The position numbers and the translations under genes were made by a program. From assembly GCF_963921235.1 (NCBI RefSeq), contig NC_086097.1, positions 69,194,001 through 69,258,000 on the forward strand: DNA of 64,000 bases. Direction: 5' to 3'. Shown piece by piece: positions 4,403 to 43,793 of this stretch. How positions within the stretch are numbered: position 1 is the first letter of the stretch; the number at the start of each line of letters is the position of its first letter. Source of the stretch: Mobula hypostoma (taxonomy: Eukaryota). The notes under the pieces were generated by a model. It was not told the DNA's origin, did not search any database, and saw nothing but the letters and a program-made list of their open reading frames with translations.

Positions 4403-4472
4403 TATGCAATGCCTAATTAGTGGGTATTATAAATATGCAACGCCTAATTAGTGGGTATTATAAATATGCAAC
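4403..4472. repeat. 31-bp tandem duplication (about 2.3 copies)
   Basis: tatgcaaYgcctaattagtgggtattataaa twice, then tatgcaac. Confidence 0.9.
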
Positions 4473-7043: not shown

Positions 7044-7587
7044 CTGCAAGATTAAAAAAAAAAAATCTTTTTACACCTTCACCATTTACTAACTTCTTCA
7101 GCAAATATAATAAATATCCAATCAGTCAATTCTAATATAAAATTTTATTGGTGCTTTCAATTTTTGGGCAAAGAGTAGATAAGCAATCAACTATACAACT
7201 CTTGCCTAGCAACATTTTTATTCCATCAATATATTCCTCATGCATCAAGACAATTTATATGCAGAGTCTCAATAAGAGAAAAAAAATTCTAGGAGTAATA
7301 AATCTGGGGACAGACATATGCGTCATGTCAATTTCTACCCAATCCTGCACCTTGTGAGGTGCATTCTAACCTTCTTTCCTGCCTAAAGGTGATAATGCTG
7401 GAACTGGAATCAAGCAATTTACATGCCAGAAAAGATGCCCTGTACGCAGAGGATGACTTGCCAAGGCAAAGGAAAACCCTTGCTACTTATATACAATGAC
7501 TAAAATGTGAAACTTTCAGTGAACAACAGTTGAATTTTTCAGTCAACTTCATTTGCTTAAAAGAATAAAAACTATTATTTTACTTAC

Positions 7588-7719
7588 TGGCTGCTTCCAA
7601 CAGCTCTGAATGCAAATTATAAGGAATTAGTGGTTCAGGCAAATCAGAAAAGAAAGCTTTAAGGGCTCCTGCCACAGCATTAACAGTCACATCCATTGCT
7701 ACAAGGTCAATATTGTGAT
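7588..7719 (-). CDS. ARHGAP5: ARHGAP5 exon 5 (132 nt), RhoGAP domain
   Basis: Acceptor ccatttag|AT, donor GCCA|gtaagt. Encodes (D)[43 protein letters not shown]; phase 1 to 1. Confidence 0.96.
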
Positions 7720-8559
7720 CTAAATGGCAGAGAAAACAAGGGGGAAAAAGTGGCTCATGTTATTACACAATGCTATTATATATGGCATTAGTACTGACAA
7801 TTTCACATTAAAGTGCAACTTGTACATCATCAAGATATTTACTTTAACTTTAAAATAAAGATATAATAAAGTTCTTCAGTGAATTAGTATTAAGGTAAAA
7901 GTAAATTCTCATTTTCTGAGCATCTGATTTAAGACATAAGCAACATCATCTGTAAGCAATTGAAGTGAAATATGCAAAAAAGCAATCCTCACTGATGGAG
8001 ATCAGCAAAGCAAATAACAATGCTACAAGAATCAAAATCAATATAGGTTTTCAAAAGTCTTATGTCAGTTCCTCAAATAAATGATCTAAACTGAGATTAA
8101 AATAATGGATTTAATAGGAACCACGGTACCAAAGATGGTATAATTTTGCGGATTAATTGAAAAATGTAGTAAATGGAAAACCCAAGGTTATAATTTCAGC
8201 ATAACCCCATTTAAACACTTGAAATATTACACTATCCTCAAGCTATGCTCATTTAAAATCAGTTACCATGTCAAGTGAGAGAAAATAAAATTAAAATTTT
8301 ATCACCAAGCAACAATGCAACCCCAAAGTGGATAGCAACCCCATAAACACAAAACCACTGAGCTAATTTCTTTGGATTTTGACGGTACAAATTTATGTAA
8401 TAATTAGGAGAGATTTGTTTCCCAGGGAAAATACACAGAGAAATAAAGTTTTGTGTTTGATAACAGAATAATGGGTAGGGATTGATACAAGGGATATAAT
8501 CCGAAATGAACTTGACTATTGTTTCAGATGTACAGAATTTGTTTATTTTTATTTAGAGA

Positions 8560-8832
8560 TACATTGTGGAACAGGCACTTCTGGCCCAATGTGCCACACT
8601 ACCCAACACCCCACCTATTTAACATGAGTCTAATCACAGGAAAATTTATAATGACCAATTAACCTACTAACAGGTACCTCTTGGGCTGTGGGAGGAAAGC
8701 AGAGTACCCAGAGGAAACCCATGCACTCACAGGAAGGATGCACAAAATTCCTAATGAGGACACCAGAACTGAACTCAAACTCCGACGCACGACCTGTAAT
8801 AGCGTTGCACTAACCGCTATGTTACCATGGTG
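8560..8832 (-). mobile_element. V-domain SINE (HE1-like)
   Basis: Reverse complement contains the V-SINE core CCTTCCTGTGAGTGCATGGGTTTCCTCTGGGTACTCTGCTTTCCTCCCACA. Confidence 0.75.
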
Positions 8833-9404
8833 CGTGTTGTGGTATTCAAGTACATAATTACAATCTTGCTGGAATGAAATTGTACTGATGTTTACAGGCA
8901 TGACAAAATTGTGTGCATTTGTGCACATTTTATGCAAATCACAATAGTGATATAACTGATTTCCTGTGACTAAATTTGTCTTCACTGTTCAGTAAGTAAA
9001 TCTACCCACTTAACTTTGATTTAATTAAAATTGTGGCAATTTCTATAAATAATGAACCAACTGCCGGATTAACACCTAATTTTTTGTCACGTGGTCTATA
9101 GAATTATCAACTATTTATGCATATTGTTTCTGAAATAATTCTATAGTTGAATTTAAGATATTAAAAAGTTTAGTTATAATTTGATAATTCACACATGCAA
9201 AATATTTTCATAAGATTTTTAAAAAATAATTTTTGAAATGTTTCAAAAAAGATACATTATATTCCTAATTATGTAAAATTCAACCCAACAACCATGAAAA
9301 TGGTTAGAAAGATGATGCAATCAGCATAAATTAAGCATAATCTGTTTAAACACTAGCACGTAAAATAGTACAGCACAGAAAGATGCCCTTCAAAACACAA
9401 TGTT

Positions 9405-10148
9405 GTTCAAAGTACATTTACTGGTAATGTATACTATATACAACATTGAGATTTGTCTTCTTACTGGCAGCCACAAAACAAAGAAACACAATAGAAGCCA
9501 TTAAAAAACACCAGATAACAAAGACTGTCAAACAACTAATGTGCAAAAAAGAACAAATCATGCACACAATAAAAAAGTAAACAAGTAAGACGCAGACCAT
9601 GAACCAGAGTTCCCGAATTAGTTCATCATTGCAGCAGGTCTGGGAGCGATGGCTGCAGACCACAGCTATAGTCAATAAAGCGCTGATGTGAGTGAGCAGA
9701 TCGAGGAGCTTGAAGGCTACAGGCCACAGCTGCAGAGTCAGTACAGCACTCAGAAGTAAACCTCACAGAGTGAGCTGAACAATGGTATGTCCTTCACCAT
9801 CGGCCTTAACCTTTTTAATCTGGCTCGGTACTTAAACTGGCCAAACATCAGCTCATTTTTTGCTCTCACACCTGGGATCCGCTGCTTCGATCTAACTCGA
9901 AATTCGCTCCAACAACGGCCACCACAGCCGTACCTGCATCATCAAAAGTCCAATTCGCTGAATCCTTCAGGATACCGCAAAAATGCCAAGTCATACAGAT
10001 GGCTGAAAAGCACAACTTCCAAAGGAAAATTACAGGCTGCAGATTGCATTGATTATTGTTCAGAAAAAGTGTAATTAACAGAATAGTTAGTAGTTTTGTT
10101 TGCTGCCTGCAAACGTCACCATGTTGCGCCAGCACCATTTTTAAGCCA
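9405..10148 (-). mobile_element. Non-coding retroelement, copy 1 of an unnamed family
   Basis: Shares its 5' start (AAAATGGTGCTG), an internal ATGTTTGG..TTTAAG motif and a ~130-nt 3' tail with 36170-37025 and 37680-38545. Confidence 0.6.
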
Positions 10149-10169
10149 AATTAATTTAATTAGTGATGA

Positions 10170-11110
10170 AATGCTCAACTGAACTAATCCCTTTTGCCTA
10201 TACAATGTCCATATCCTTCCATTCATTCACATTTCAAGACCCTCATCTTCACCTCTGTCATATTTTGCTCCACCACCACCCCAGGCAGCACATTGCAGGC
10301 ACCCACCACTGTGTTTTAAAACTTTCCCCTTCACCTTAAATGCATGCCCTACAGTATTAGCATCTTTTTCCCTCAGTGTTGAAATACCTGAAGTGTCCAC
10401 TCTATGTCTCTCAAAATCTTATAAACCTCTTTCAGATCTCCCCTCAGTCTCCACTTCTCCAGAAAAAAAACACAAGTTTACCCAACCTCTTCTTGTCCTC
10501 TCATCCACGTAGCATCCTGATAAACCTCTTCGGCACCTTCTCCAAAGGCATTCGCACATCATTCTGATAATGGAGCAACAGAACTAAAAAGATGCTGCCT
10601 AACTAGAATTTCATAAAGACTTAACATGTCTTCCTGATTCCTAAATTTCAATTCGTTAACTAATAAAGGCAGGCATGCTGTATGCCTCCCTTTACCACCC
10701 TATCAACCGGTGTAGCCATTTTCAGGGAGCTATGATGTTGGACTCCAAAACCCTCTGCAGTTCAATACTGTTAAGGGTCTTGTTCAAGCCACTATGTTTG
10801 ATCTTCCAAAGTGCAACATCTCACATTTTGCCAGGTTAAAATGCATCTGCAATTTCTGCCCCCTAGAGCCTGCAGCATCCTCGAGCAGCTTTCTATGTTA
10901 TCTCTACACCATCAACCTTTGCATCACTGTAAAAATACTAGCCCACCCACCTACATTTTTATCCAGGTTATTTTTCTGTCATATCAACAGCAAAGAAGTC
11001 AGTACGGATCCCTGAGGAACACCACGTGTCAAAGACCTCCAGGCTACCTCAGTCCCACTGACCATTACACTCTGTCTTCTCTGGGTAAGCCAATTATGAA
11101 TCCAATTCTG
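10170..11110 (-). mobile_element. Decayed CR1 LINE (RT to 3' end)
   Basis: Antisense CR1 RT-region motifs (ccaaagtgcaacatctcacattt, gatccctgaggaacaccac). Confidence 0.7.
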
Positions 11111-11679
11111 TTCCAATGTGTTTTATTCTTCTGTTTACTGAATGCTTGTAGAAAAAAAATAATAAATGGGAGTTACAAAAGTGGCTCATTATGGATTAGA
11201 GGATGCAGTGGAGAACGAGTTGAATTGCCACTTGTCAAAATTTCCAATTTCAACTATACAATAGAATGACAACCAGAATTATCCCTGCCATCGGAATGGG
11301 AAACAAAAAAATTGAAATGTCATTCTTACCAATTTAATCTTGGGATTCTAACAACAGATTTGCAGTTATAATCAACTTGACACTTGACATTCCATCTTTT
11401 TCATATGATGGTCTGTTTGAAATTTTCATCTTTGAACACTTATTATTAAACCCTTGTTTACAACAATGGGATGAAAACTCATTTTGCATGTAGGTTTCAT
11501 AAAAAGTGATGGGTGGCCAACAATTAATTGATAATTGGTTTATTGTCACATGCTCTGATATAGCAGAAAAAACTTTGCCTTACATGTCATACGTACAGAT
11601 AATTTCAAAACCCAAGCACATTAAAGAAATACAAGGGAAAAGGGGTAACAGGACACTAAATACTGGGTGTCTCAGTAGC

Positions 11680-11870
11680 ATAGCATTTAGCATAATACTA
11701 CTGCAACGCCTCAATTCTGCCATTGTCAATAAGGCGTTTGGACACAACTGCGTGAGTTTCAGTTTCCTCCCACATTCCAGAAAAGTATGGGTTAGGTTAA
11801 TTGGTCACATGGGTATATTTGGACGGCACAGGCTCATCATCCAGAAGGGCCCGTTAGCAAGATGTAGCTC
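11680..11870 (+). mobile_element. Degenerate V-SINE
   Basis: gtttcctcccacattccagaaaagtatgggttaggttaattggtcac core. Confidence 0.55.
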
Positions 11871-12509
11871 ATAAATAGTGTTACAGTTAGAGAAAGCACA
11901 GTGCAGGTGAACAATAAGGCTCAAAGGTCAAGTCAAGGTAAATCATAAGGTCAAAAGTTCATCAATATCATACAAGTGGTCCATTCAATAGTCTTACCAC
12001 GAAATTAGGGCTGTTCATGGCCATGACACAGATTTTGTGTTTTTCTCTCACATGCTGACAAACTGGGATATTTATTTAAAAAAAAAACAAGATTGTCCAT
12101 CTGATATAGGTCCCACTTTAATTTTGTAACTTGCAAAAGCAGGGAAATGCAGTATGATACATTTACATGTCAAAATACCAAGTTGCACAAACTTTTGTTC
12201 TTCTAACTTTGTACATAGTACGCTTATCAAAAGTTCCTTCACATTAGATACATTGCAAAGATCTTCAGACCATTTTTTTAGGCCAGGCAAGAACTGGGTC
12301 CAGAGTGAATTTAGAGTAACTGCTTCCCAAAGGCCAAGTTCTCAACAATCCTAAAGCTTTGCTGCTGCGACCACTTTGTAAAGTATGGTGAGCCACAAAT
12401 GGTGATTAAGACCACCTTGATTCATTCTGAGAATGTGTACTGTCATAAAGCTTTTCATTGTTTCTAAATCTAATGATTAGTTATAACTCCTACTCCTCCA
12501 TCTAAATAC

Positions 12510-13515
12510 ACCACTGTGCAACTGGATGTTGGACTTCTGAACCAACAGACCTCAGATAATCAGGATGTACAATCACTCCTCCCCCTCCCAATCTTCCTCA
12601 ACATAGGTGCCCCCTCCCCCCAGTGCTGTGTGCTGAACCCACTATCACATTATCAAGCTTGCCGATGACACGGCACAGCAGTGATGAGGTTCATCAAACA
12701 ACGATGAGACTGCCTACAGAGAGGAGGTGGAAGAGCTAAAGGACTGGTGCCAGGTAAATAACCTCTTCCTCAATGTCAACAAGACAAAGGAGATGGTTAT
12801 CGACTTCAGAAGAACTTGAACTACTCACATTCTCTTACATTAGCAGCAGTGAGTAATTTCAAACTCCTGGGAGGGAGGGCACATCTCGTGGTCTCAGAAA
12901 ACATTCTGCACAGTCAGGAAAGCTCATTAGCGCCTCTACTTTCTGAGGAGGTTCAAGAGAGCTGAATTATGCACATCTATATTCATACCACTCTACAAAT
13001 GCACAGTAGAGAGCATCCTAACATGTTGCATCACTGCATGGTATGAAAATTGCAGGGGACAGAAGACTCTACAATGGGTAGTCAAAACTGCCCAATGCAT
13101 CACTGGCATCGGCCTACCCACCATCAAGGACACATACACAGAAAGGTGCCAGAAAAGGGCCAGCAACATCCTTAATGATCCCACCCATCCTACTCATGGG
13201 CTGCCTGCCCCACTCCCATCAAGAAGGAGGCTACATAACATCTTCACCAGGACCTCTAAACTCAAAAACAGTTATTTTCCTCAAGTAGGAAGGCTGATCA
13301 ACACCATCAATCAACTTGCCCCTCCAAACCCTCCACCACCACTACTATATCATTTCCTGTCAATTTAGACACTTAAGTGTCTAGCATCACTTCATGGACA
13401 TACAATTAATGTACACAAGCTTTCATACTTATTATGCTTCTTGTGTTATTTTTATTATTGTGTTCTTTATCTTATTGCATTACTTTTTGTGTTGCATCAA
13501 ATCCGGAGTAACGAA
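12510..13515 (+). mobile_element. Rex1/Babar-type LINE 3' portion, decayed
   Basis: WMLDF.TNRPQ, KLADDT, LNVNKTKEMVIDFRR, QRLYFLRR-like and VESILTCCITAWY remnants. Confidence 0.8.
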
Positions 13516-14244
13516 TACTGAGCAACAACTGAAAACTATTAAAATAAACACTGGAGTCATCAGCTAAGAAGATGCATGCATAGTTGATTGGCACTCAGAC
13601 CCACATTCAATCCAGTGCCCAGGGACAGAGGGGAAGGTTGGTTGCGAAATATCTACCTCCAGCACTTTCCTTAATCCTGCAAAAGTTAAGAATATACTTC
13701 ATGTGCACATTATAGTTAACTGGCGGTGTCGAGTCATCTGCAAGCAGTGTACAAGCAAGAAGAATACATTTCTTAAGACTTAATAACCAACAGAAAGTAG
13801 TATTATCAATATGAATATGATTAATCAGCATGATTATAGCTGATCTAATCTTAGCCTCAATTCAACTTTCCTGCCTGTCCCCAATCCCCCTCAATTTTAA
13901 AAGCCCTAAGCCCCAAATGCAACCTCTTCTCTACAGCTGTTCCGGTAGGTAATTTCAAAGATAGCCAATCTTCAGATGAAATTCCTCCTCACCCAGTATT
14001 AAATGTGAAATCCTTAATCTGCACCCCTTAGTTGTAGCATGGGTTCTTCCTAAAAGGCAAATATCCACTCAGCATCTACTTAGTAAGCCTCCTTGCGATT
14101 TATTGTTTCAACAGTATCACATATTATTCTTCTAAACTATAATGAATATCATCTCCAAGTGTTCAACCTTTCCTCATGAGCTATCCCCTTCATCCAAACA
14201 ATACTTCCCTGAACAACCTCTAATGCAAGTCATGGTGTCATGCA

Positions 14245-14580
14245 GCCTAACGTACATTCCAACCAAGGTGCATATCTGAGCTCGGACAATTTGCCTCATT
14301 TGGCCCATATCTCCCTAAACCCTTCCTATCCATAAACCTGTTCAAATGCCTTTTAAACATTATAATTACATTCACCTCTACAACTTTACCTGGTAGCTTA
14401 ATCCATGTACCAATTACAGCGTCTGGAAAATGTTGCCTTCTCAGACCCCTTTCAAATTTTGTCTTGTCAACCTTAAATTTTTGTCTTTTTAACTCCACTA
14501 TGCTGGGAGAAAACACTGTGACCATCCACTTTATCTGAGTCCCTCGTGATCCAAACATCTATAATGTCAATCCTAGCTTA
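14245..14580 (-). mobile_element. CR1 LINE 3' fragment
   Basis: Remnant ...WIKLPGKVVE...FKRHLNRFMDRKGLGRYGPN. Confidence 0.65.
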
Positions 14581-16595
14581 ATCACATCCTTCCTTATTGG
14601 TTGCATCACCAACTTACAGTATCTCCTTGTATCACCACATGCAGATAACTATCTGTGGATACCTGCTGAAAGAATTCGACCAAAATTGTATGTTGCCCTC
14701 CAAATGTGATCTCATTCTACACTTGTTTGTCCATTTTCCTACCCTGCAGCTGTTCCATTTTACTCATTGGCCAGATTACCTCGTTTAAAGCTTATTCTCA
14801 TGGTTACCCTGGTTTTATGCTAGAGGCAGTCCTACTCCCACACCCTTCCTACAGCTTAAACTTCTTTTGCCTCCTTCCTAGTTCTGATGAAGGATCTTCA
14901 ACTTGAAATGTTAGCTCGTTTCTCTTTCCACAGAAGCTGCCTGACTTTGTTTTTAATTTAGATTTCCAACATTTGCAGCATTTTTGATTTTCACGTGATA
15001 CCATTTTGGCTTGCTTAAGGTATTTCACAATTTCAAGGTAATATTGCGGAAATAACTGCAGTAATATCATTAAAGCAGGCTTAAGTAGGGATTCTAGTGG
15101 TGCCAGACTGCCAGATTTTCCAGACCATCAATGTTATTCCTATTAATATCCCAAGATAGTTTTAGTTCATTTTTAAAAAAAAATGTAACATGGCAGTATA
15201 ATAAATTTTCCAATGAACGTGTTAAGTTTAAGGGGGAGCATGGGAACCAGGGCCCTCCTGGAGTTTAAAGGGAACTCAATGATCAGCACCTGCTGAGCCA
15301 TAGCCAAACCACTGTGATTTTCAAACCACCAGATAATGTACTTCCTTAAAATTCCACCTTTTTTCCTTCCAAACAATTCTCCCCTTTGACTGTTCAAACC
15401 TGGTTTATTTTTAAAATGTAAATTAGTTGTAATATTTTGCAATAGTTAACATATTAGGACATTTGTTTGCTTCAGTTAGCACTGCAATCATTTTACCTTT
15501 TCTTAAGTGAAACACATAAATTTTATTACAAAACTTGGAACTCAGGGTTCTGTCTCTATGTCTAATCACTTTAGTTACAGGTAAATGAGACATTTTAAAC
15601 TGATTTGCATCACATCCCACAAATAAAGATATTATCATTGCCAGCATTGAACCAGCAATAAGAGCTCACAAGTGAACTTCATCTTCTCGTAGTTTACCTC
15701 TAAAACCATCCTTTATGCTTCAGGCTGGAAGGAATTGCTAGCAAACTATTTGATTATGCAGACCAACATTCACTTTCCAGTTAAAAAAGAACTGTAAAAA
15801 TCATTACATTTTCCTCTGTCACTCAAGTTCAACAGTGCTAGATTCAATTATGCATTTGTTAGTCCACGTTTGTTACTTATCCTTACCAGAGCTCTGATTG
15901 ATTTTTTTTCTGTTTAAAAATGAAACTAACATTAAATGTTAATTAAGACATTTTTGTTTGTTATAGTTTAAAAGCGTTATACTCCGATATAACAATTTAC
16001 TCAATTAAAAAGTCTCAGGATTGAAAATGCTTTCAAGCAAGTTTAACTTAAATCTAGATGGGTCAATTGCATCAGTGTACTTGTTAATTAAAAGAAAATC
16101 ATAAAATGAGAAATATTTCATGCAGGTAGGTAAATCTATGGTGCTTAGCTTCAACTGGCTTTCTATTATTTGAGAGATATTTATCTAGTTTAGGTATAAC
16201 TAGCATGTCTCTCGGCAACGAAAACAAACTGTTGGAGGAATTCAGTGGGTCAGATAAAGGTAGTCTACATTTTGGGTCGAGACCACGCGCAAGTGTGTAG
16301 GTAAATCTTTCCTACCAAAGACACGGAATGAGTCTTCACGTACCAGATTTGTCAAACAACAAACATGTTTGCATGAAACACTCCTCAATAATTTTCAACA
16401 TATCATCTCCCTTCACTTTAGTAGTTCTCTAGATATGACCATGCCATTAGACTGTAAATGTTAAGTACCTAATGGATATTGTTTTTAAACTGGAAATGTT
16501 CAATAACACAGAATTATATATTGACATTCTGTGCAAGTAAAGCAGAAACAGAAATAGTCAAAAGTGAAACCCAAAAAGGATTGAAACACAGGAAT

Positions 16596-16843
16596 AATCC
16601 AAATACAAGAAATTCTGCAGATGCTGGGAATCCAAAGTAACACACACACAAAAGACAGGCCAGGCAGCATCTGCAGAAAAGAGTAAACAGTTAACATTTT
16701 GGGCCGAGACCCTTCATCAGGACTCCAGGCAGTTCCGTACCGGTGACACTAACATCTCCAACACTGGTTCCACAATCCCGCGTGGTCAGAACCCCAATTC
16801 CATCACCGTCAGTGCTGGTTCCAACTACCCTGGAATCTTGTGC
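16596..16843 (-). mobile_element. Penelope-like 3' tail with decayed hammerhead motif plus ~120 bp of unrelated sequence
   Basis: Reverse complement GTCCTGATGAAGGGTCTCGGCCCAAAATGTTAAC...CCCAGCATCTGCAG. Flanked by a cacaggaat direct repeat (16587-16595, 16844-16852). Confidence 0.65.
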
Positions 16844-17200
16844 CACAGGAATCCAACACAGTAGCTTTCCTGTGTCGTTACCAGCTGATTGTCAAATTCT
16901 TTACTTCAGACTTCTCAATATTAAAAAAGCTTAATGATAAATATTTCTTATAAAGCATAACAGCTGAGGTTGAAGAGATTACATTTTTGACTCAACATTA
17001 AAGTCACAATTAAATAAAACAAATAAATTGTATTTAAAATGAATTACCTGGCTTTCCCCTTGGACATCTGGCTGCAGGTGTATCAAAAATCTACACATTT
17101 ATAACACTGAAAGACACTAACACGTTGGCTTTTAAACCTCGTATGGAGTTAATAAGAAAACAGCCATTAATGTAATTTATAAAATGCTGCTATATGGTAC

Positions 17201-17278
17201 CTTGATCAAACTGCCTTTGAATATTATCTTGATCAGTCCTGTTTCCACTGACACGATACAGTCCTTCAGTGTTCAAAC
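17201..17278 (-). CDS. ARHGAP5: ARHGAP5 exon 4 (78 nt), contains the catalytic arginine finger (GLYRVSG)
   Basis: Acceptor cccaccttag|GT, donor CAAG|gtacca. Encodes (G)LNTEGLYRVSGNRTDQDNIQRQFDQ(D); phase 1 to 1. Confidence 0.96.
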
Positions 17279-19244
17279 CTAAGGTGGGAATAAAATTTTT
17301 CAAGAAATCATTTAGCATTAAATAAATAAAAGATTTTTTTTAATTTTTGCTATCAAATGGTATTACAAAGAAAATAATTTTGAATCATGGGACGGAAGCT
17401 ACCAAATGTAAATAAGGTGAAAGGAATTTTAAAAATATAATAGCATCTAGTAATGACATTCCAACGGATGGGAGATTTTAATCCTACAGTCCTAAAGAAA
17501 AAGGAGAGCTCAATGCAGGTGTCCCAATTAACATACAACGTTTCTTGATTCAGGAACAGTTTTGCAGATTAAAAAGAATTGAACATCTTTCTGCAGTTTA
17601 AGGGAGAGTGAAACTCAAAATATTACAGCCAAACTACTGAATTGTTTGGAAACAAGTAGCAGGAAACACTGCAGAGATAAAGGGTTAATAAGGACCCTTT
17701 ATGATTAATAAATATCCATGTTTATTAGTGAACCAAAAATGTGATATTGTAAGTCATGTACTTGGAAGCAGTAAATTATTGAGTTAACAAATGAATTAAT
17801 AAGCAAGATATTTCAATGGAGAAAAATGCAAAATCACCCACTTCGTTGTTTCTAAATTATGAAAACATAACTGGAGGCCAAAGAGACCACAGAAAACATA
17901 CATATCTTTATAATGTCATTTGGCATTCATAACAAAAAATCATGGAAAGTCAATGTAGCTTTTCTACTAATCAAACAGTATAGTTTTCACGTTATAACCA
18001 CACTAAGCCCTGGTTAGACTACGTAAGGCGAACCATGGGGTTCTTAACACAACGCTTCCAAAGGATGTATTGCCCTTGAACAGAAAGCAGCACAGATTTG
18101 TATGGAATAACACATAGGCTGAAATGACTGCATTACACGACTACACAAAGTGAAGATGAGATACTCAGAAAATTATGTTAAATTTACAAGGTAAAAAGGG
18201 GGAATTAAAAGAACAGTGGAAAGAAAAAGTGAGTGCAACAGAAGGACCGATGCACGCACATAGCTTTGAAATTGCATCTGATCTTTTATAAGTTATTATA
18301 AAAAATCAGATGCAATATAAGTTCACGTTTGTAAGTTTACATGTTTGAGATAGGTAGTTTCTGCACACTTCAGTCATTAATCCTAAATACAAAGTTAACA
18401 GAACTCAAGGATTACATGGTATAAACAATAGCCCAATATTAAGCTACAGATCAGCGATGATTAGTGGAACACGCTTCAAAGCCTGTTCCTAATAAAACAC
18501 TATGTTCACTACTCAAATCTGCATTATGTTTGCTCATGAGAAATTGTGGAAGAGTTAAGGTATCGCAGTCTTCTAAAGTCAAGTTGCATAATATATAAAC
18601 TCGAAGATTCACAATTCCTTTCTTCAGTGCATCTGTCCTTGTATCATGCTTTCCTCCTTTAGTTCTTTCTTTGATCAATCTTTTGGTCACTTACCCTGCT
18701 TTAACAACCTTAATGCAGAACCAAATCGCTCAAAGTCAAAATTATTTGTAGATATCACACTGGAGAGGTGAATCAAACACATTAGAATATAATCTAACCT
18801 ATGAGATGATAATATAAAAACTTATACACTAAACATTTATATGGTACATGGAGATATAAGCAAGATAATAAGAAAAGCAGAACATTATCCACAAAATCAA
18901 AGGCATCCAGAAATATAGGTGATTAAGTAGTATTCACTAGTCAGTAAAGCAAGGACTGGGCTTTTATCCCTTTGGGGCATAGGATTCAAAGATTGTAATG
19001 TTAACTGATTGACCCGCAGGAGTACTTACTAAAGATGGTTCTGGTCTCCACTCTGGAAAAAGGTCAGGGAAACAAAAAGTACACTGAAGTACCAGGAATA
19101 TTTGGGGAAAAAAATAACTACAAGATACCACAATTGAGAAAGTGCAGCTATCAGGTGAAAATGAGTAAATTATGGCTTCATTCTTTAGAATGAAGGAAGA
19201 CTTGGAGGCAATCTGAATTAGATATTTAAAATGATGAATGGGTT

Positions 19245-20781
19245 TTCCCAGCTATGCCTGCCTTTTTGTTGGCTACGTGGAACAGTCTACACGTTCCAAG
19301 CTTATACCGGTATCACTCCCCAATTTTTCCCAGGCTACATCGACGACAGCAATGGTGCAGATTCCAGCACTCATGCTGAGCTTGTCGGCTTCACCAACTT
19401 TGCCTCCAGCTTCCACCCTGCCTCAAATTTACCTGGTCCATTTCTGACATCTTCCTCCCCTTTCTCGATTTCTCTGTCTCTATCTCCGGAGATAGTTTAT
19501 CTACTGGTATCTTTTAGAAACCCACTGACTCTCACAGCTACCTGAACTATACCCCTTCCCACCCTGTCACTTGTAAAAAAAAAATGCCATCCCTTTCTCT
19601 CAATTCCTCCATCTCTGCCGCATAGGCTCTCAGGATGAGGCTTTCATTCCGGAACTAATGAGATGTGATCCTTCTTCAAAGAATGGGGCTTTCCTTCCTT
19701 CACCATCAAAGCTGCCCTCACCCGCATCTCTTCCATTTCGCACATCTGCCCTCACCCCATCCACCCACCACCCCACCAGGGATAGGGTTCCTCCTGCCCT
19801 CACATACTATCCCACTAGCCTCCACGTCCAGCACAGAATTCTCCATAACTTTTGACAACTCCAGTGGGATCCCACCACCAAGCACATCTTTCCTTCCTCC
19901 ACCCCCACCCCCACTTTCTGCCTCCCTTGCCCATTCATCCCTCCCCACTCTCTTTTCTGGTACTTATCCTCACAAGCGAAACGAGTGCCACACCTGCCCC
20001 TACACCTTCTCCCTCACTACCACTGAGGGCTCTGAACAATCCTTCCAGGTGAGGAAATACTTCACCTGTGAGTATATTGGGGTCATCTGATATATCCAGT
20101 GCTCGCGGTGTGGCCTCCTGAATATTGGTAAGACCCAATGTAGACCGGGACACTGCCAAGCACCTACACTCTATCCACCAGAAAAAGTGGGATCTCCCAG
20201 TGGCAGCTCATTTCAGTTCAAATTCCCACTCCAATATGCCAATCCATGAGCTCCTCTACTGCCAGGATGAAGCCACACTTAGGTTGGAGGAGCAACACAT
20301 TATATTCTGTCTAGGCAGCCTCCAACCTGATGGCATGAACATCGGTTTTTCAAACTTCTGGTAATTGCCGCCCCCTCCCAACTCTCCTTCACAATTCCCC
20401 ATTCCCCTCTCTCACCTCATATCCTTACCTGCCCATCACCTCCCTCTGGTGCTCCTCTCTCTTCCCTTTCTTCCATGGCCTTTTGCTTTCTCCTATCAGA
20501 TTCCCCCTTCTCCAGTCCTTTATCTCTCTCACCAATCAACTTTCCAGCTCTTTACTTCACCCCTCCCCATGTTCCCCGTCACCAGCTACCTTGTATTTCT
20601 TCCTTGCCTCCCTCCAATTTCTTACTCTGACCTCATCCTTTTTTCCCCAGTCCTGATGAAGGGTCTCGGCCCGAAACATGGACTGTTTACTCTTTTCCAC
20701 AGATGCTGTCTGGCCTGCTGAGTTCATTCAGCTTTTTCTGTGTGCTGCTTTGATTTCCATCTGCAGATTTTCTCTTGTTCG
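19245..20781 (+). mobile_element. Penelope-like element (RT + GIY-YIG remnant, 5'-truncated) inserted into an older CR1 fragment
   Basis: GYIDD and KPTDSHSYLNY-like RT remnants; GIY-YIG-like FTCEYIGVI...RCGLLNIGKT; pyrimidine-rich UTR with hammerhead motif. 10-bp TSD tgaatgggtt at 19235-19244 and 20782-20791. Confidence 0.85.
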
Positions 20782-22261
20782 TGAATGGGTTAAACATGAT
20801 TGAGATGGAGAAAGTCCTTGCATAAGTATTCAAAACCCATCTACCTTAACCACAATTCCCCATGTCAAGTCCAGCAGCAGCATCTTTTCTTGAAGACTGG
20901 TGCAAAACGTTATTATCTCTGCTCTGCCTTATCTACATGAGTAAATTTCCTGATCAGAACTATTTTTCCTTTTGCCTGCAGTATAATTTTTGATTTCATA
21001 CATCTACTGCCAAGTCTTTTCTCATATTCACTCCAACTGCCTTTTTCTTCAATTCCTCTGAATTTTCTGTAATTGACTGAGTTCTCATTTTTGTTAACAA
21101 CTAGGCATTTCTCCTATGCTTTGTTTTCAGCTACATTTTACTTTCAATATTTGTTCATTCAGTTTCCATAGCTACTTTAACCATCGCAGTATTACGAAGG
21201 TTATTTCATAAGTGCTCGTTATTTATGTGGTTATGTCTTGAAAATAGTAAAAATATCCCAAGGCACAGCAATAAGAGTAAAGTGAGCAATGCATGCAAAG
21301 GAAACAAAAGGGGCATGTCACAGAGTTGAAGAAAATGGGAACAATATGGCATTTGAGCTGCACCCAGTTACACAGCTACACAATCATGATAGCAGACAGA
21401 ATAGAGCAGTCGGTTAAGAATGCATCCTTAAGGTGCACCTGTGTTGATTGTCAGCAGTAAGATATGTTATTACCAATCCGCGCTGACTGTTTTCCTGATA
21501 AGGAAGTCAACTATCAATGATGCTTGCATTGAATAGGATTCCTTTTGCCATATAACTTTTGGCAGTGTCATACTACAGGTAATAACAAGATAATTCAATA
21601 AATCTTAAATAACTTAAAGTATTTACCAACTTGGACAAATTGTATCCTTCAATGCATCCAATGATTGTGTGGTAGAAACTCCATTCCAAAACAGAAGAAT
21701 TTTACACAATGGCCATATTGTTCTTGTGTTACAGACATTATCAATTTTTTTCAAACAATGAATAGAGGTAATCAAATGAAACCAGTTAATTTTAAACAGC
21801 AACCACTCAATAAACTCACTCCTTTTCATGCAATGAGTATATCTGCAAGTTCTTACGAGTCTTTCCACATCAAAGCCAATTAATATAGAAACCAACAACC
21901 ACACAATTACGATAGCTGCAGATGTAATTTAGTTTTTAAAAAATCTGATCAATAAAATTAGGTGAGGCAACATAAAATACCTGATAGAATCCTAAAGGTG
22001 AAGGAACAGGGATAACTATGCATGAATATGGATAAACTTTCAAGGCAGCAGGATGATTTGAGAAAACTGCTTGAATAAAAAAAAACACTGAATCCTTGGT
22101 TCTAAAATGAGGAACAGAATACAAAAAGTTATGAAAAACCTTTTACATAACCCAGATTAAACTTCATCATTTCTTCTCAAATTTCTTCAACATTTGAGAA
22201 AAATGTTCAAAATCCCAAATAATATTTTGAAAGAATAAATAAAGGAAAACTATTTTCAGTG

Positions 22262-22865
22262 GTGTACTTCCTCAGGAGGCAAAAGAAATTTGGCATGTCC
22301 CTGTTGACTCTTACTAATTTTATCAATGCACAATAGAAAGCACTCTATCTGGATGCATGGTAGCTTGGCATGGCAACTGCTTTAGAGGCGACAAGAAGAA
22401 ACTGTAGAGTAGTGGGAGAGTAGCAGATATAGGTCAACACATCACTGAAATCAGCCTCCCCTCTATACTTCTCGCTGCCTCAGTAAAGCGCAGCCAGCCA
22501 GCCAGCATAATCAAAGATCCCACCAACCTCAAACAAATTTCTCCTTTCTCTCATTGGGCAGAAGATACAAAAGCCTAAAAGCACATATCATCAGGCTCAA
22601 GGAGGGCTTCTATCCTACTGTTATCCAATTCCTGAGCTGACCTCTTATATGATAAAATGGACTCTTGACCTTACAATCTACCTCATATATGATCTTGCAC
22701 TTTATTGTTTACCTGCACCACATGTTGAGGCTTTTACACATTATTCTGCATTGTTATTGTTTAGCTTATTCTACCTCAATGTACTGTGTAAGAACTTCAT
22801 CTATATGAACAATATACAAGGCAAGCTTTTCACTTTATCTTGGAACATATGACAATATAAAACAA
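22262..22865 (+). mobile_element. Rex1/Babar LINE 3' fragment
   Basis: YFLRR...NFYQCTIESTLSGC...WHGNC remnants plus 3' tail. Confidence 0.7.
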
Positions 22866-23398
22866 TACCAACTTCCTTCCACAAGTTGATAAAATTACTG
22901 AGTGACATAAGGAAAGGGATCCTAACAGTGAGTTTATTTTAGGATTTGGAATAGACTGCCTGAAAAACCAGTGTAAACAAGTGCAATGGTATTGCTGAAA
23001 AGGAAAATTATTAACCCAAGGAATAAAGCTTATCCCTATGGTTTTGGGTAAAGGGCAGATAATTGGGTGAAATTGGACAGCTCAAACTAAGAACTGGCAC
23101 AGGCTTGAAGGAATATTAAATTCAAGTACTTATTTATTCAATTTATTTAACGTTCAGCAGTCAACTTAAATTTATTGGTGAAGAAGCCTTGTTAACCTGG
23201 TGGCATCTGGCTTAAACTTCATAGGATGCATACAAAAAGTACAGAAATGGTAAAATATTTGTTAAAACTTTCTCATTTTAATGATCGGACTTTTCAAATT
23301 ACTTGTCTAAAAGTGCAGCGTGATCTTGAGTTCACAGCAGAAGGAAGTACAAATACAATTGAAAATAAAGCTATAAAAGGGTTTTCCTCTTCTTTTCT

Positions 23399-23555
23399 AT
23401 TTGTACTCTTTCATTATTTCCTGCAGGTGATCTGATTAGCCGCTGAATGGCTGTTTAGGACTGATCAAGATAATATTCAAAGGCAGTTTGATCAAGGTAT
23501 CAAACAACAGCTATTCAGCTTTGTCACCTGCAGAAAATAATGAAAGAGTACAAAT
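23399..23555. repeat. Inverted repeat enclosing an inverted 43-nt copy of ARHGAP5 exon 4 and its donor
   Basis: Outer arms 23399-23430 / 23524-23555 (31/32). Inner arms 23442-23455 / 23506-23519 (13/14). 23457-23499 is the exact reverse complement of 17198-17240. Confidence 0.93.
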
Positions 23556-24084
23556 GCAAAGGAAAAGCTTCTAATCCATTTCCACACGGCTCTGGCATGT
23601 GTCAGAAGTCTATTATCAATTCTGTTACCGGTCTAAACAACAAATCAGTTGTTTAATATGTAACTGAAGTTCAAATATTATTCTCCATTTTTCTAAAGTT
23701 TAAAATAAAAATGCTATCTATAATATAAAATGCTGGATCCAGTCAAATAAATACTCTGTTCTTTCAATAGGAAAATCAAGGGACTGTGATAATCCTGACA
23801 CCCATATAAAAATATTCAAGAGACTGGCTACAGCTAAAGGTTTTACTTGGTTTTGAATCAGAATCATGGGATCATCCATATAAATTCGAGACTGCATATG
23901 ATCCAACTGTGCAGGTGTTTATTACTTAGAATATTTAATTTGTTTTTTTTAAAATGTTTCGCACATGCTGTCATAAAATATTGGCTCTGTAGGCAATAAC
24001 CAATCATTCTTGTTCCTGTCAGTCCCCATTCTAATCACATCTGGAACACCACTGCTGATATTGAACTGTCCCATAGAAAATAGT

Positions 24085-25655
24085 AAATTGATTTATTGTC
24101 ACATATACCAAGGTAGAGTAAAAAATATTAACATAGTACAAGGTAAAGCAATAGCAAAATGCAGAATATAGTGTTGCAGAGAACGTGCAGTATAGGTAGG
24201 CAATAAGGTACAAGAGTCACAATGAGGTAGATTGTGAGGTCAAGAGTCCATCTTTTTGTTAGGGAAACTACCAAAAATCTTACAACAGCAGAATGGAATT
24301 AGTATATAACCACATGAAACAAGATACAGTGAAAAGCTTGCCTTGCATACTGCTCATACAGATGTGCTGAGCTGTGTCCCTTGTGGTCATAGGCAGAGCA
24401 GCTGCCATGCCAAGCTATGATGCATCTTGGAAGGATGTCATCTATGGTGCATTGATAAAAATTGTAATGGGTCAATGGAAAAATGTCAAATTCCTTTAGA
24501 CTCCCAAGAAGTTGAGGCACTGTTGATATTTCATGTTCGTGACATCAACGTGGTTGGAACAGGACTGGCTATTGTTAATGTTCACTTCTTAGGAACTTGA
24601 ACCCTCCCATTCTCAGCACTGTTGATGAAGAGGAGTGTATGTGCACAACTCCCTTTGCTAAAATCAATGACCAGCTCTTTTGTTTTGCTGACGTTGAGGG
24701 AAAGACTGTTATCAAGACACCAAACTACTAAGCCCTCTTTATCCTTCCTGTACTCTGACTCATCATTTCAGAAATACCCCAATATGGCAGTGTCATCTGT
24801 AAAGTTGTAGATGGAGTTAAGAGCACAATCTGCTTACAGAGCCATGAGTGTAAAGTGAGCAAAGGGCTGAGAATGCAGATTTGTGGAGCACCAGTGTTGA
24901 GAATAATCATGGTAGAGACTTTGCTACCTATACCTCTTAATGATTTCAGCATTGGTCAGAAAGTCATGCATCCAGCTGCAGGAGATGTTGACTCTTAAGT
25001 CTGGGAGTTTGGTGGCAAGTTTGCTTGAAATTATAGTATTGAAGGTGGAAATATAGGCTAATGTGGGCGTCTTTATTGGGTACAAAAAATATTCCAGAGA
25101 TGAAAGTAGGGCCAGGGAGATGGTGTCCACCGTAGACATATTTCAACAGAAAGTGAATTGTAGTGGGTCAAGGCTACCTGAAGGCTAAAATTAATGTGTG
25201 CCATGACTTGTCTTGCAAAGCATTTTATAATGGCGGGTGCCAGGGCCATTGAGAAAAACAAGGTAATCCTTGAGATTGCAAACACAAGGAAATCTGCAGA
25301 TGCTGGAAATACAAGCAACACACACAAAATGCTGGTAGAACGCAGCAGGCCAGGCAGGATGTATTGGAAGAGGTACAGTCGACGTTTCAGGCCAAGACCC
25401 AAGTCCTGACGAAGTCTCTGACCCAAGTCTCTTCCAATAGATGCTGCCTGGCCCGCTGCTTTCCACCAGCATTGTGTGTGTAATCCTTGAGATGATAGAC
25501 GTCTTCTTAAAGCAGGTGGGAACATCAGAGATTAAAAGTGACTGCAGGGAGAGGTTAAAAGTGACTGCAAAACCCTCCACCAGTTGATCTGCATGAGACA
25601 CAAGGACACCTTGAGCCTGGTGGTTCATGTATTTCAGGCTTCTGTACCTTCTGGC
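24085..25655 (-). mobile_element. Rex1/Babar LINE, decayed, with a nested Penelope-like insertion
   Basis: VPTCFKKTSII, IKCFARQVMAHI, FNTIISSKL, LNTGAPQICILSPLL, NFYQCTIDDIL remnants. Confidence 0.8.
25277..25479. mobile_element. Short palindromic Penelope-like insertion (two inverted tails joined at the hammerhead region)
   Basis: 14-bp TSD gtaatccttgagat at 25263-25276 and 25480-25493. Arms are reverse complements of each other. Confidence 0.8.
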
Positions 25656-26001
25656 CAATGGGAGGGGATGGGGGGGAAGAGAGGGTGGGGAAGGAGGGGT
25701 GGAGGGGAGAGGGAAGCAAATGTCCAGGACAGGAGTCTCTAGTTAAACTGCTTGCTTTACTAGGGCAGCCAGATGTAGGCAGAATTCATGGAGGTGAGGC
25801 TGGTTTCTGTGAAGTGCTGAGCTGTGCCCACAACTCTCTGCAGTTTCTTGCAGTTAAGGGCAGAACAGTTACCATACCAAGCCAGAACAAAGAAAATGTG
25901 GATTTCAGGTAGCAAACAGCCAAGCAAATCAGTATTGCATTCCAGCAGTTGAGGAGTTGGCCTATAGTTTCTCTCAAAGTTCACATTATCAAAAATAACT
26001 A

Positions 26002-26814
26002 CAGTGGATTCCAGTTAATGGAGACACATTTAGGCCCAACTAAACTGCCACCCCAATTAGCAGAAATTTCATGAAAATAATTAAGGTATAAAAAAGACAA
26101 ACTACCATTTAACTGAGTAACAAGTTGTATATTTAAATTAAATACAGAACAAATTAGAACACTACCAATACCACTACAGTACTATAAAACTGTGTATTAG
26201 TTCTTAATAGTTATTGGCAGAGAATTCATCCAGGGTATACTTCCAAGTTATTTTGATTGACTGTAAATGAACAAAATCAGCGCAGACAACTAGTGCAGAT
26301 AATGGACTGCCTTCATACAATACCTTCGACAATTGCAACTTCTGAATTTTCATTATATTGTAACATCCAAGATGAATGTCGATATCTTCACTTTCTTTGT
26401 AGTACCCAACTTGAAGTAGTGAAATGGTTTCATTTTCACTCCTGGCTGTTTCCGGCATTTTCAAGCCTGAATGCTTGAAACAGCAGTGAGCAAAACAACT
26501 CTGAATTGTCTTATTGCATATTTCTTCCCAACTATCAGACAAAATTCAAACCTTTTTGAACACAAACACACACAACTGATGCTACTTAAAATCTGTTCAC
26601 TCTAAGTAAGGTGGTGTGTCTGCACACATATGTGCATGCAGCTAACACTAGTTAGAAACTGTTCAGCAACAGTCTCCTGTCCCAGTTAAGCAGCAGTGTC
26701 CCAAATTAACTAATGGAATCCCAGCTATTTTCTCAATTAGTTTTTGTTCTTTAAGAGTTATCCCAAATAAGCAGCTGCCCAATTAACTGATGGTCAACTA
26801 ACTGGAATCCACTG
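26002..26814 (-). mobile_element. Internally deleted Tigger/pogo-like DNA transposon
   Basis: TIR cagtggattccagtta / taactggaatccactg with TA on both sides. Remnant DSWEEICNKTIQSCFAHCCF resembles the end of a pogo DDE domain. Confidence 0.8.
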
Positions 26815-28259
26815 TACTTAGCTTAAAAATCTGAACACTGACTACTTCTGTGAAGTTGTACTCCAGTTATAGATTGGCAAAAAAATACAGCTGACACAAG
26901 GGTAATAATGTCCTCTGTAAAATTCCTAACAGAGACCTTGAGATACTTCTGGCTGTGCAAGATTATGAACCCTACTATTACTCTTGTTCTTGTTTGAGGG
27001 ACTTAGCAAGAGGTGGAAAACCACAAATCTGAGATCAAATTTGTTCCTTCCCGTTCATGAAGAGGATTATGAAAAGAATTAACTATTTTTGATCAATTGC
27101 CAACACTGTACTTGTGTGAATGTGCCACTGCTATATTAGAAACAAAGCAGGCCAATTGTGGAAAGTCAATTCCATGTAACAAAAGCTACATTCTGTTTCA
27201 TCATTTAAATATTGGTCAAGCCATCAAAAATATCTCATCTGCTCGATTTCCATATATTGTCTTGGACTTGAGAATTGAAGGTCTTACTTAAACAAGATGG
27301 TATAATATCACACTCCCTCACTGCTGCATATGAGGAAATATCTGGATGTTTTGCTGATTCCTCTGAAGTGAGACATGAATCCACAATCTTTAGACTCAGA
27401 TATTTAAAACTGTCACTACACCAGAAAAGAACAGGGAACATTTGAATCAGTAATCTCTGCACAAAACAAACAAAAAAAACCTCTAGATACCAACAGAAAT
27501 CTGAGAAGTAAACCATGCATTACTACCACTTTCTTTTCTCCTTCAGCCATCTTAGTACTCAGGCTTGTACAGTCCTTTATTTTTTTGGTTATAATTTTAC
27601 TTCAGTTATACTGAAGTAATATAGTGGACTGAAGTGAGAACGTGGGGTCAGAGGTAGAAACAAGCTATAAATGATTGTCCATTTGGAGCCATTAATTTGT
27701 AAGTTTGAAGCTTCTAAAGCTCCAGAAACAATGTCCTAAAGCAATCATTTCTATAAGTAAAGCTATGGATTGCATTAAATAGTCAATCTACTTTTATTAG
27801 GTAGATATTAACACTTGGTTCTTTTGCAAAACCTTGATCAGACCTCAAATATAACACTACACATAGATCCACTCACCACATATTTTGGATAATAATGAGG
27901 ATTTACGAAAGACACAAAGCAAAACCAATGTATTCTCATTTTAATTCATGCTAATACAGATTCAAACCTAGGATTACTTACTTCTGTGAAACTTTGATTC
28001 GCATTTGATCTAATCAAGTCTTATGATTATACAGTGTTGCAAAATACAGAAGATAAAGTCCAAAATTTTAAGTTTTACAAAATAAATTCCAGATTTTAAA
28101 AATAAGTAGAATAGATTTTTCTATCAGACTACTAGCTTCAAGTTGACACTGATTCACAATTTCTTCAACAGAGCTAGACCTGGTGCTAGTGATAATTTGA
28201 TGAGAAAAGAAAGAACAGAGAAAAAATTCCAGTGCTGGAATAAGCTGCGGGGATAGCTG

Positions 28260-42915: not shown

Positions 42916-43427
42916 ACTCTGCTTCCCACTCCCATTCAAATATGTCCATACATGGCCTCCTCTACTGCCATGATGAGGCTAAACTCAGGTTGGAGAAGCA
43001 ACACCTCATATACCATCTAGGTAGTCTCCAGCCCCTTGCTATGAACACAGAATTCTCCAACTTCCGGTAATTCCCTTCCCTTCCCTTCCTCTATCCCTAT
43101 GTCACTCTGCCCCCTCCCCCAGCTGCCTACCACCTCCCTCTTGGTTCCGCCTCCTTCCACTACCCATTGTGTTTTCCCCTATTCTTCTTTCACCTTTCCT
43201 GCCTATCACCTCCCTGCCTCCCTTCCCGCACCCCTTTATCTTTCCCCTTACTGGTTTTTCACCTGGAACCTACCAGCCTTCTCCTTCCCACCCTCCCCCC
43301 ACCTTCTTCGTAGGGCCTCTTCCCCTTCCTTCTTCAGTCCTGATGAAGGGTTCCGGCCCGAAACGTCGACCGATCTTTTCCACGGATGCTGCCCAACTTG
43401 CTGAGTTCCTCCAGCGTGTTGTGAGTG
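42916..43427 (+). mobile_element. Penelope-like 3' end with intact hammerhead core
   Basis: KLRLEKQHLIYHLGSLQP remnant plus pyrimidine-rich UTR. TSD ttgaagagca at 42906-42915 and 43428-43437. Confidence 0.82.
43335..43372 (+). ncRNA. Minimal type I hammerhead ribozyme motif (Penelope-associated)
   Basis: CAGUC-CUGAUGA-A-GGG(UUCCGG)CCC-GAAAC-GUC-GACCG: conserved core boxes, stem I GUC/GAC, stem II, palindromic ACGU stem III and a GUC cleavage triplet. Activity not shown. Confidence 0.7.
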
Positions 43428-43499: not shown

Positions 43500-43793
43500 A
43501 TACAAAATACTCTGCAGATGCTGGGATCAAAGCAACACTCACAACATGCCGGAGGAACTCAGCAGGTCGGACAGCATCGGTGGAAACGATCAGTCAACGT
43601 TTCCGACCGGAACCCTTCGTCAGGACTGAAGAGGGAAGGGGCAGAGGCCATATAAAGGTGGTGGGGGGAGGGTGGGAAGGAGAAGGCTGGTAGGTTCCAG
43701 GTGAAAAAACCAGTAAGGGGAAAGATAAAGGGGTGGGGAAGGGGAAGCAGGGAGGTGATAGGCAGGAAAGGTGAAGAAGGTGTTCTGAGTGTT
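43500..43793 (-). mobile_element. Penelope-like 3' end, inverted relative to its neighbour
   Basis: Near reverse complement of 43185-43430. TSD cctaaaagYtgtat at 43486-43499 and 43794-43807. Confidence 0.8.

Follow-up and report, generated by a model that had tools for sequence, protein, structure and literature searches.

Template-switch mutations, as treated in the four-point model, write the reverse complement of a nearby segment in one event, and can in one step create a hairpin whose stem is perfect from the outset (PMC5453318, PMC8794818, PMC7954356). Such events mostly have a short range, reaching over tens to hundreds of bases. Breaks in yeast have likewise been found to acquire fold-back and distant templated insertions, some made of several pieces, together with short inverted duplications beside the break; those events are experimental and somatic (PMC11724301). 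At the RNA level, the conserved complementary regions known as PCCRs form pairs separated by kilobases of the same pre-mRNA, with one partner covering a splice site, and reportedly suppress exons or block splice sites in human genes (PMC8052449; cf. PMC2724269, PMC3783185). They are defined by conservation and are backed by compensatory changes and structure probing. Finally, an intronic complement of an exon near a splice site is found in the ADAR substrates at the GluA2 Q/R and R/G and the Gabra-3 I/M sites, which are defined by measured editing (PMC1920255, PMC3479170).

The element described here lies in intron 3 of the ARHGAP5 gene of Mobula hypostoma, in a window (the whole stretch of DNA that was analysed) of 64 kb. 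It consists of a 43-nt antisense copy of the end of exon 4, termed here the patch, in the loop of a palindrome. The arms of the palindrome resemble the product of a template switch, whereas the patch comes from 6.2 kb away: the copied piece is the end of an exon and its splice donor, and it occurs together with a local fold-back. In contrast to the insertions in yeast, the element is germline and fixed in ray species. It shares with the PCCRs the kilobase spacing within one pre-mRNA and the position of one partner over a splice site, but no covariation is seen across organisms A, B and C; the perfect pairing of exon and intron points to a young copy rather than to an evolved structure. Compared with the intronic ADAR complements its duplex is perfect, long and far upstream of the exon, and the element is common, as far as seen, only to close relatives (organisms A, B and C below). 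Among the literature matches listed there was no inverted exon copy of this kind.

The host gene and the antisense patch

The minus strand of the window encodes a p190 RhoGAP, with a 1282-codon open frame (57952-54104) that contains pG1/pG2, FF and Ras-like domains. The Pfam domains found were PF19518 (pG1/pG2, E 1.9e-279), PF16512, PF23083 and PF00620 (RhoGAP), the last of which was matched by the last exon and by exon 4, although the 25-aa fragment from exon 4 scored only 20.4 bits (E 5.2e-4), below the whole-protein cut-off of 24.5 bits. The best relatives, taken as cluster representatives, are named ARHGAP5 and match at 93%, against 51-52% for ARHGAP35, which argues that the host gene is an ortholog of ARHGAP5 rather than of ARHGAP35. 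The translation of exon 2 is identical to the ARHGAP5 isoform records X1 and X2 of Mobula hypostoma at 1228/1228 residues, and to that of M. birostris at 1226/1228. Exon boundaries were taken from a tblastn alignment of the Mobula hypostoma ARHGAP5 protein to the window, and are collected with the other features in Table 1.

Exon 4 encodes (G)LNTEGLYRVSGNRTDQDNIQRQFDQ, in which the arginine of GLYRVSG is, as established for RhoGAP domains, the catalytic arginine finger. The first-pass annotation of this DNA had held that the exon could be skipped without loss of the reading frame, joining 51212 to 7719, and its length, its phase and the ends of the neighbouring exons bear this out. The donor of exon 4 has no G at position +5 and looks weak when held against the splice consensus. 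The donor of exon 2 (54212, minus strand) reads AAG/GCAAGT at a boundary placed by tblastn only, which suggests that intron 2 is a GC-AG intron.

Table 1. Positions in the window of ARHGAP5 exons, of the element and its parts, and of neighbouring repeats
Feature	Position	Strand	Remarks
Exon 2	57934-54212	-	tblastn
Exon 3	ends 51212	-	tblastn
Exon 4	17201-17278	-	78 nt, phase 1-1, GLYRVSG, donor AAG/GTACCA
Exon 5	7719-7590	-	tblastn
Exon 6	7047-6937	-	tblastn
Last exon	near 2196-1861	-	tblastn
Source segment	17198-17240	-	last 40 nt of exon 4 (17201-17240) and donor GTA (17198-17200)
11-mer AATGGCTGTTT	17158-17168	-	intron 4, 29 nt downstream of source segment
11-mer AATGGCTGTTT, second site	23446-23456	+	adjoins start of patch
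Antisense patch	23457-23499	+	exon 4 positions -40 to -1 and intron +1 to +3; exact match
Left outer arm	23387-23430		core 23398-23430 near perfect; outer 11 nt weakly matched
Left inner arm	23442-23455		14 nt, 93%
Loop	23456-23505		50 nt: T, 43-mer, TCAAAC
Right inner arm	23506-23519		14 nt
Right outer arm	23524-23567		inverted-repeat search
20-nt direct repeat	23346-23365	+	17/20 with outer end of right arm, 23547-23566
SINE-like repeat copy	22416-22873		abundant; bounds unique 1.25-kb island holding the element
Same SINE-like family, copy or copies	24126-24600		opposite orientation to 22416-22873

A search of the window with up to three mismatches allowed showed that the patch is the reverse complement of the source segment at 43/43 positions, with no mismatch. 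The 43-mer has just these two sites in the 64-kb window, and two matches were obtained in none of 100 shuffles. On the plus strand it reads AGGACTG...CAAGGTA, and the identical letters are read on the minus strand from 17240 to 17198; since ARHGAP5 lies on the minus strand and the patch has the sense of exon 4 on the plus strand, the patch is antisense in the ARHGAP5 pre-mRNA. It lies 6217 nt upstream of its target and is transcribed first. The first-pass annotation had described a perfect antisense copy of the exon end and its GTA, situated in intron 3 some 6.2 kb before exon 4 and derived from something other than mRNA, and each of these statements was upheld. After CAAG the patch continues with the intron bases GTA and not with ATC, the start of exon 5, so that its source was DNA or unspliced RNA; an origin from spliced mRNA is thereby ruled out.

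Local alignment of the element with the exon 4 region showed that homology to the patch ends sharply, with only a weak 8/12 tail (+3 after a gap). Over the 12 nt upstream of the patch only 2/12 positions are identical to the flank of the source. Microhomology is absent from the left junction; the right junction has 8/12 similar bases (chance P ~0.004, a post hoc estimate). The exactness of the patch together with the abrupt end of homology identifies it as a short templated patch rather than a decayed segmental duplication. A decayed large inverted duplication and ongoing gene conversion were both rejected on the absence of flanking homology; a tract of 43 nt is, besides, too short for gene conversion. 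The 11-mer AATGGCTGTTT, shared by the start of the patch and intron 4, could represent another small templated fragment or microhomology used in the switch; its significance is a rough post hoc estimate.

Eight exact repeats of at least 24 nt occur in the 64-kb window, and the pair formed by the patch and exon 4 is the sole isolated one outside repeat elements; the others are an inverted pair of repeat elements at ~43.2-43.8 kb, other interspersed repeats and a 31-nt tandem duplication. The inverted pair (43189-43303 and 43660-43775, in intron 3) is large, with exact blocks of 49, 31 and 29 nt, and is probably made of two head-to-head copies of one repeat element. The tandem duplication, at 4411-4472, is perfect. 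On the plus strand at 23428-23496, an acceptor-like tract in the left arm (tttcctgcag/G) and the AAG/GTA donor of the patch outline a 69-nt exon-like unit.

The palindrome and its neighbourhood

The patch had been placed in the first-pass annotation within an inverted repeat of two tiers, and these were found again. The outer arms pair over 33 nt with two mismatches (23398-23430 with 23524-23556), or over 31 nt with one, and can be extended to 44 nt at 89% complementarity; the inner arms pair over 14 nt with one mismatch. The spacer between the tiers is asymmetric, 11 nt on one side and 4 nt on the other. When the left half was aligned with the reverse complement of the right half, the score was reached by none of 500 shuffles. 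The transcript-sense RNA of positions 23380-23575 is predicted to fold at -79.5 kcal/mol, while shuffles average -37.5 kcal/mol and none of 200 does as well (z -11.6), and the hairpin is retained in a fold of 1.2 kb, where its two halves share 50 pairs. Within the loop the patch forms a helix of its own of 7-10 bp, because the exon end holds two TGATCA motifs, and RNA folding leaves ~19 nt (23469-23487) unpaired. The 20-nt direct repeat to the left of the element also pairs weakly with 23390-23407, at a score reached by 2/500 shuffles; the fold-back may have been seeded here by an older quasi-palindrome. An RNA family search of the element gave no microRNA precursor or known RNA family above the gathering score; two matches to plant miRNA models stayed below it (39.1 bits against 140, and 31.8 against 80), and both identities were rejected.

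The element is no member of a repeat family. In 3.48 Gb of genome searched as 200 pieces, the 201-nt element matched only itself, its own reverse strand and exon 4, and the 31-nt core of the arms was found, at up to three mismatches, only as the two arms themselves (reversed control, 0). In a genome search with a query of 2.2 kb, in which 40 of 12920 first-look candidates were scored, the 1.25 kb around the element matched nothing else. This island is bracketed by the SINE-like copies of Table 1, which are ~460 nt long, ~76% alike and inverted with respect to each other, and which could also pair in the pre-mRNA.

Occurrence and drift in three organisms

Contigs from four sequencing runs, X1 (organism A), X5 (organism B), X9 (organism A, putative RNA) and X11 (organism C), were aligned to positions 7401-27400 at 85% likeness. 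The share of sampled words in the DNA runs was 0.84-0.89 for organism A, ~0.5 for B and 0.08-0.15 for organisms C to H. Over eight listed pieces per run, divergence amounted to 154/10503 (1.5%) between A and B and 333/7111 (4.7%) between A and C.

Run X1 covers the element with two contigs, 22733-23486 and 23470-24245, and the exon side with 17211-19274, the two at the element without a difference. All three end 30 letters into the 43-mer, the pattern that a graph of 31-mers gives for an exact repeat of 43 nt; Logan contigs presumably use k=31. Run X1 possibly comes from the sample behind the assembly, and is therefore not independent of it. The contigs of X11, 22837-23486 (22 letters differing, 32 in gaps) and 23470-24125 (21 and 13), break at the same points as those of X1, so that organism C has an exact 43-nt repeat with the same boundaries. 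The exon-side contig of X5, 17211-19274, is as in A, while its right-hand contig starts at 23461, from which it follows that in B the shared stretch ends at 23490 (34 exact nt) and that position 23491 differs. Its partner in the exon is the middle base of the Asp codon of QFDQ. As 28/30 elasmobranch records among the matches listed keep this peptide unaltered, the change in B most likely lies in the intron copy; it could be heterozygous.

The element is therefore older than the divergence of the three organisms. Two possibilities that the first-pass annotation had named as fatal to its reading, an artefact of assembly and confinement to one species or haplotype, both fall, because the element is present in the contigs of three organisms with matching junctions. 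All three of the organisms compared carry it and none of them provides an insertion-free outgroup; the ancestral sequence before the insertion, like the points of switching considered below, is therefore a reconstruction.

For 43 neutral sites the three-taxon tree predicts ~2.3 changes, against a single inferred one (P(<=1) = 0.32); with one mismatch in B, complementarity has not been kept beyond the neutral expectation. Under neutrality the probability that the patch stays unchanged along the whole path from A to C is ~0.13, so that 43/43 in both A and C counts mildly against neutrality, though not significantly. The arms have three mismatches in 47 pairs, corresponding to an age of ~3.2% per lineage if they were perfect at birth; with the A-C split at ~2.3% per lineage, the event is estimated to be just older. 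At that age the patch had a chance of 0.25 of still being perfect in A, since only the intron side of the patch-exon pair is free to change. The substitution counts fit a single event followed by drift, and are too few to tell against weak constraint. As its null explanation the first-pass annotation had offered a recent neutral scar of template switching or repair: the scar has become the preferred reading, while its recency has to be given up, because the element predates the split of A and C.

Isoforms, origin and possible activity

Among the matches listed are 30 elasmobranch ARHGAP5 records, three bearing the name Mobula. No record in this set is missing exon 4 by itself, and 28 of the 30 keep the finger motif; exons 4 and 5 are missing together from one partial record and from one with an alternative 3' end. 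Outside the elasmobranchs, records P0037 (Oncorhynchus tshawytscha) and P0042 (O. kisutch) lack exactly GLNTEGLYRVSGNKTDQDNIQKQFDQ, 26 residues, and read YIERT/DHSVDL across the join, at 1476 aa instead of 1502. The in-frame product without exon 4 that the first-pass annotation predicted is thus on public record in two salmonids, and a GAP-dead in-frame isoform becomes plausible in vertebrates; both records are automatic models from species not known to carry the element. The only alternative Mobula isoform among the matches listed, X2 of Mobula hypostoma (P0125, 1371 aa), skips exon 6 and not exon 4; P0125 joins exon 5 to the last exon (~2127-2174) in another frame, truncating the RhoGAP domain. 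In ARHGAP5 X1 of the electric ray Narcine bancroftii (P0123), 18 extra residues between the peptides of exons 3 and 4 indicate an alternative small exon inside intron 3. The putative RNA run X9 contains an unspliced contig of intron 3 and exon 4 (17251-17776) that stops 28 nt into the exon, an end that would fit a branch with the spliced exon 3-4 path. The rows listed for X9, which are dominated by repeat copies, include neither an A-to-G difference in 17201-17240 nor a junction of exons 3-5 or 4-5, and this weighs neither way. Nothing on exon 4 or on a GAP-dead isoform was found among the literature matches listed for ARHGAP5 exon skipping.

The element is probably a fixed scar, most likely neutral, left by a template switch or by fold-back repair before A and C separated. 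In an ancestor shared by three or more devil-ray lineages, DNA copying would have gone wrong once in a complex way, either by a switch of template where a fork had stalled or by fold-back synthesis while a break was being repaired. The growing strand, then in intron 3, would have left its template, copied 43 nt (the end of exon 4 and GTA) from the opposite strand 6.2 kb away, and then folded back to copy its own upstream 14 + 33 nt before rejoining; a single stroke would have set an inverted exon patch precisely into the loop of the hairpin so formed. Three mismatches would later have accumulated in the arms, and in the patch none in A and C and one in B. On its folding energies the element must form a very stable hairpin in the pre-mRNA and could pair with exon 4 and its donor, but any effect on splicing or editing is expected to be small. 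We infer this order of the switches, as well as the singleness and the neutrality of the event. As a fold-back or template switch predicts, the pieces are adjacent reverse-complement copies: the patch appears to copy the plus strand from 17240 down to 17198, and the right arms from 23455 down to ~23398. An exact reverse-complement copy from nearby, sharp ends and an adjacent local inverted duplication, the features by which template switches are recognised, are all present. The shared 11-mer and the 20-nt direct repeat fit a switch in several steps, whereas the missing microhomology at the left junction and the 11/4-nt spacer do not fit neatly, and the spacer would need an extra slip or a later indel.

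A history in two events, in which an older intronic palindrome broke at its centre and was mended with a 43-nt patch templated 6.2 kb away, is likewise neutral and differs from the preferred explanation only in history; it is unlikely. Hairpins and cruciforms break at the centre, and the patch sits exactly at the centre of symmetry. The three mismatches and the asymmetric spacer of the arms, against a patch with no mismatch, would suit a greater age of the arms, and breaks in yeast are known to receive insertions templated by distant loci (PMC11724301). The difference in mismatch load is, however, not significant, because both arms drift and only one side of the patch-exon pair does, and no species with the palindrome alone was seen among A, B and C. 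That the element might be a foldback or MITE-type transposon with a captured exon fragment, or else an artefact of assembly, has a probability that is practically nil. Inverted repeats of 33-44 nt at the termini would suit a transposon, but the arms are unique in the genome, so the element belongs to no transposon family, and no target-site duplication abuts the arms; the transposon was rejected on the occurrence of the arm repeat at this locus only, and the artefact on the identical junctions in contigs of three organisms.

Thermodynamically the element could act on the transcript in which it lies, both partners being within the minus-strand transcription unit of ARHGAP5. As an antisense modulator of splicing in cis, its loop would nucleate pairing over the terminal 40 nt of exon 4 and the 3 nt of intron 4 that follow. 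A weak donor would so be masked against U1 from -3 to +3, giving an in-frame skip of exon 4 and a p190-B that lacks the arginine finger. The complementarity is perfect over 43 nt in A and C, the duplex is predicted to be worth -73.4 kcal/mol against costs of opening of 7.6 (antisense in the hairpin) and 12.2 (exon end), and the ~19 free nt in the apical loop, the phase of exon 4, the weak-looking donor, the salmonid record of the exact skip product and the human precedents of PMC8052449 all speak for this reading. Against it, organism B has no perfect pairing, no excess conservation is seen, and an exon 4-only skip is absent from the 30 elasmobranch records among the matches listed; the salmonid skip, annotated without any known element, shows that the element is not needed for it. 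A loop closed by at least 46 bp should be unable to make four helical turns around a second strand while its stem stays shut, the distance of 6.2 kb and co-transcriptional splicing leave little time while the splicing of intron 3 competes, and a RhoGAP expressed so widely would probably do harm if it often lacked its catalytic arginine. A functional role in splicing is unlikely a priori, and on balance such a modulator is improbable.

Very improbable, likewise, is a duplex resembling an editing-complementary sequence, in which the 43 bp would recruit ADAR and lead to the editing of adenosines in the RTDQDNIQRQFDQ codons or in the donor, whether incidentally or as recoding that is put to use. 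Such a duplex, perfect within one pre-mRNA, is at hand; exonic editing sites are commonly defined by intronic complements (PMC1920255), distant intronic elements can induce editing (PMC3479170) and PCCRs are enriched in editing sites (PMC8052449). Perfect pairing over 43 bp should nevertheless give promiscuous editing, which is hard to square with a peptide that is invariant in 28/30 elasmobranch records among the matches listed. Selective ADAR sites, moreover, use imperfect and mostly nearby duplexes.

It would be a long shot that devil rays encode in their genome an antisense 'oligonucleotide', a 43-nt complement of the weak donor of the catalytic exon displayed on a hairpin, born of one template switch and kept for millions of years, which tunes the amount of an arginine-finger-less p190-B or directs the editing of exon 4. 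With the same 26-residue skip annotated in two salmonids, exon 4 would then be a latent regulatory cassette captured by the element. If the element is functional, DNA alone would reveal, as it rarely does, how a cis-antisense switch of splicing or editing arose and how it works, and the genus would offer natural variants, perfect in organisms A and C and with one mismatch in B. If, as preferred here, it is neutral, it would be a clean and datable natural case of a single error writing a perfect RNA hairpin together with a long exon-antisense patch. A vertebrate lineage would then tolerate a complement that matches a catalytic exon and its splice donor perfectly over 43 bp, and the locus would offer a calibration for the prediction of regulatory long-range RNA structures from complementarity alone.
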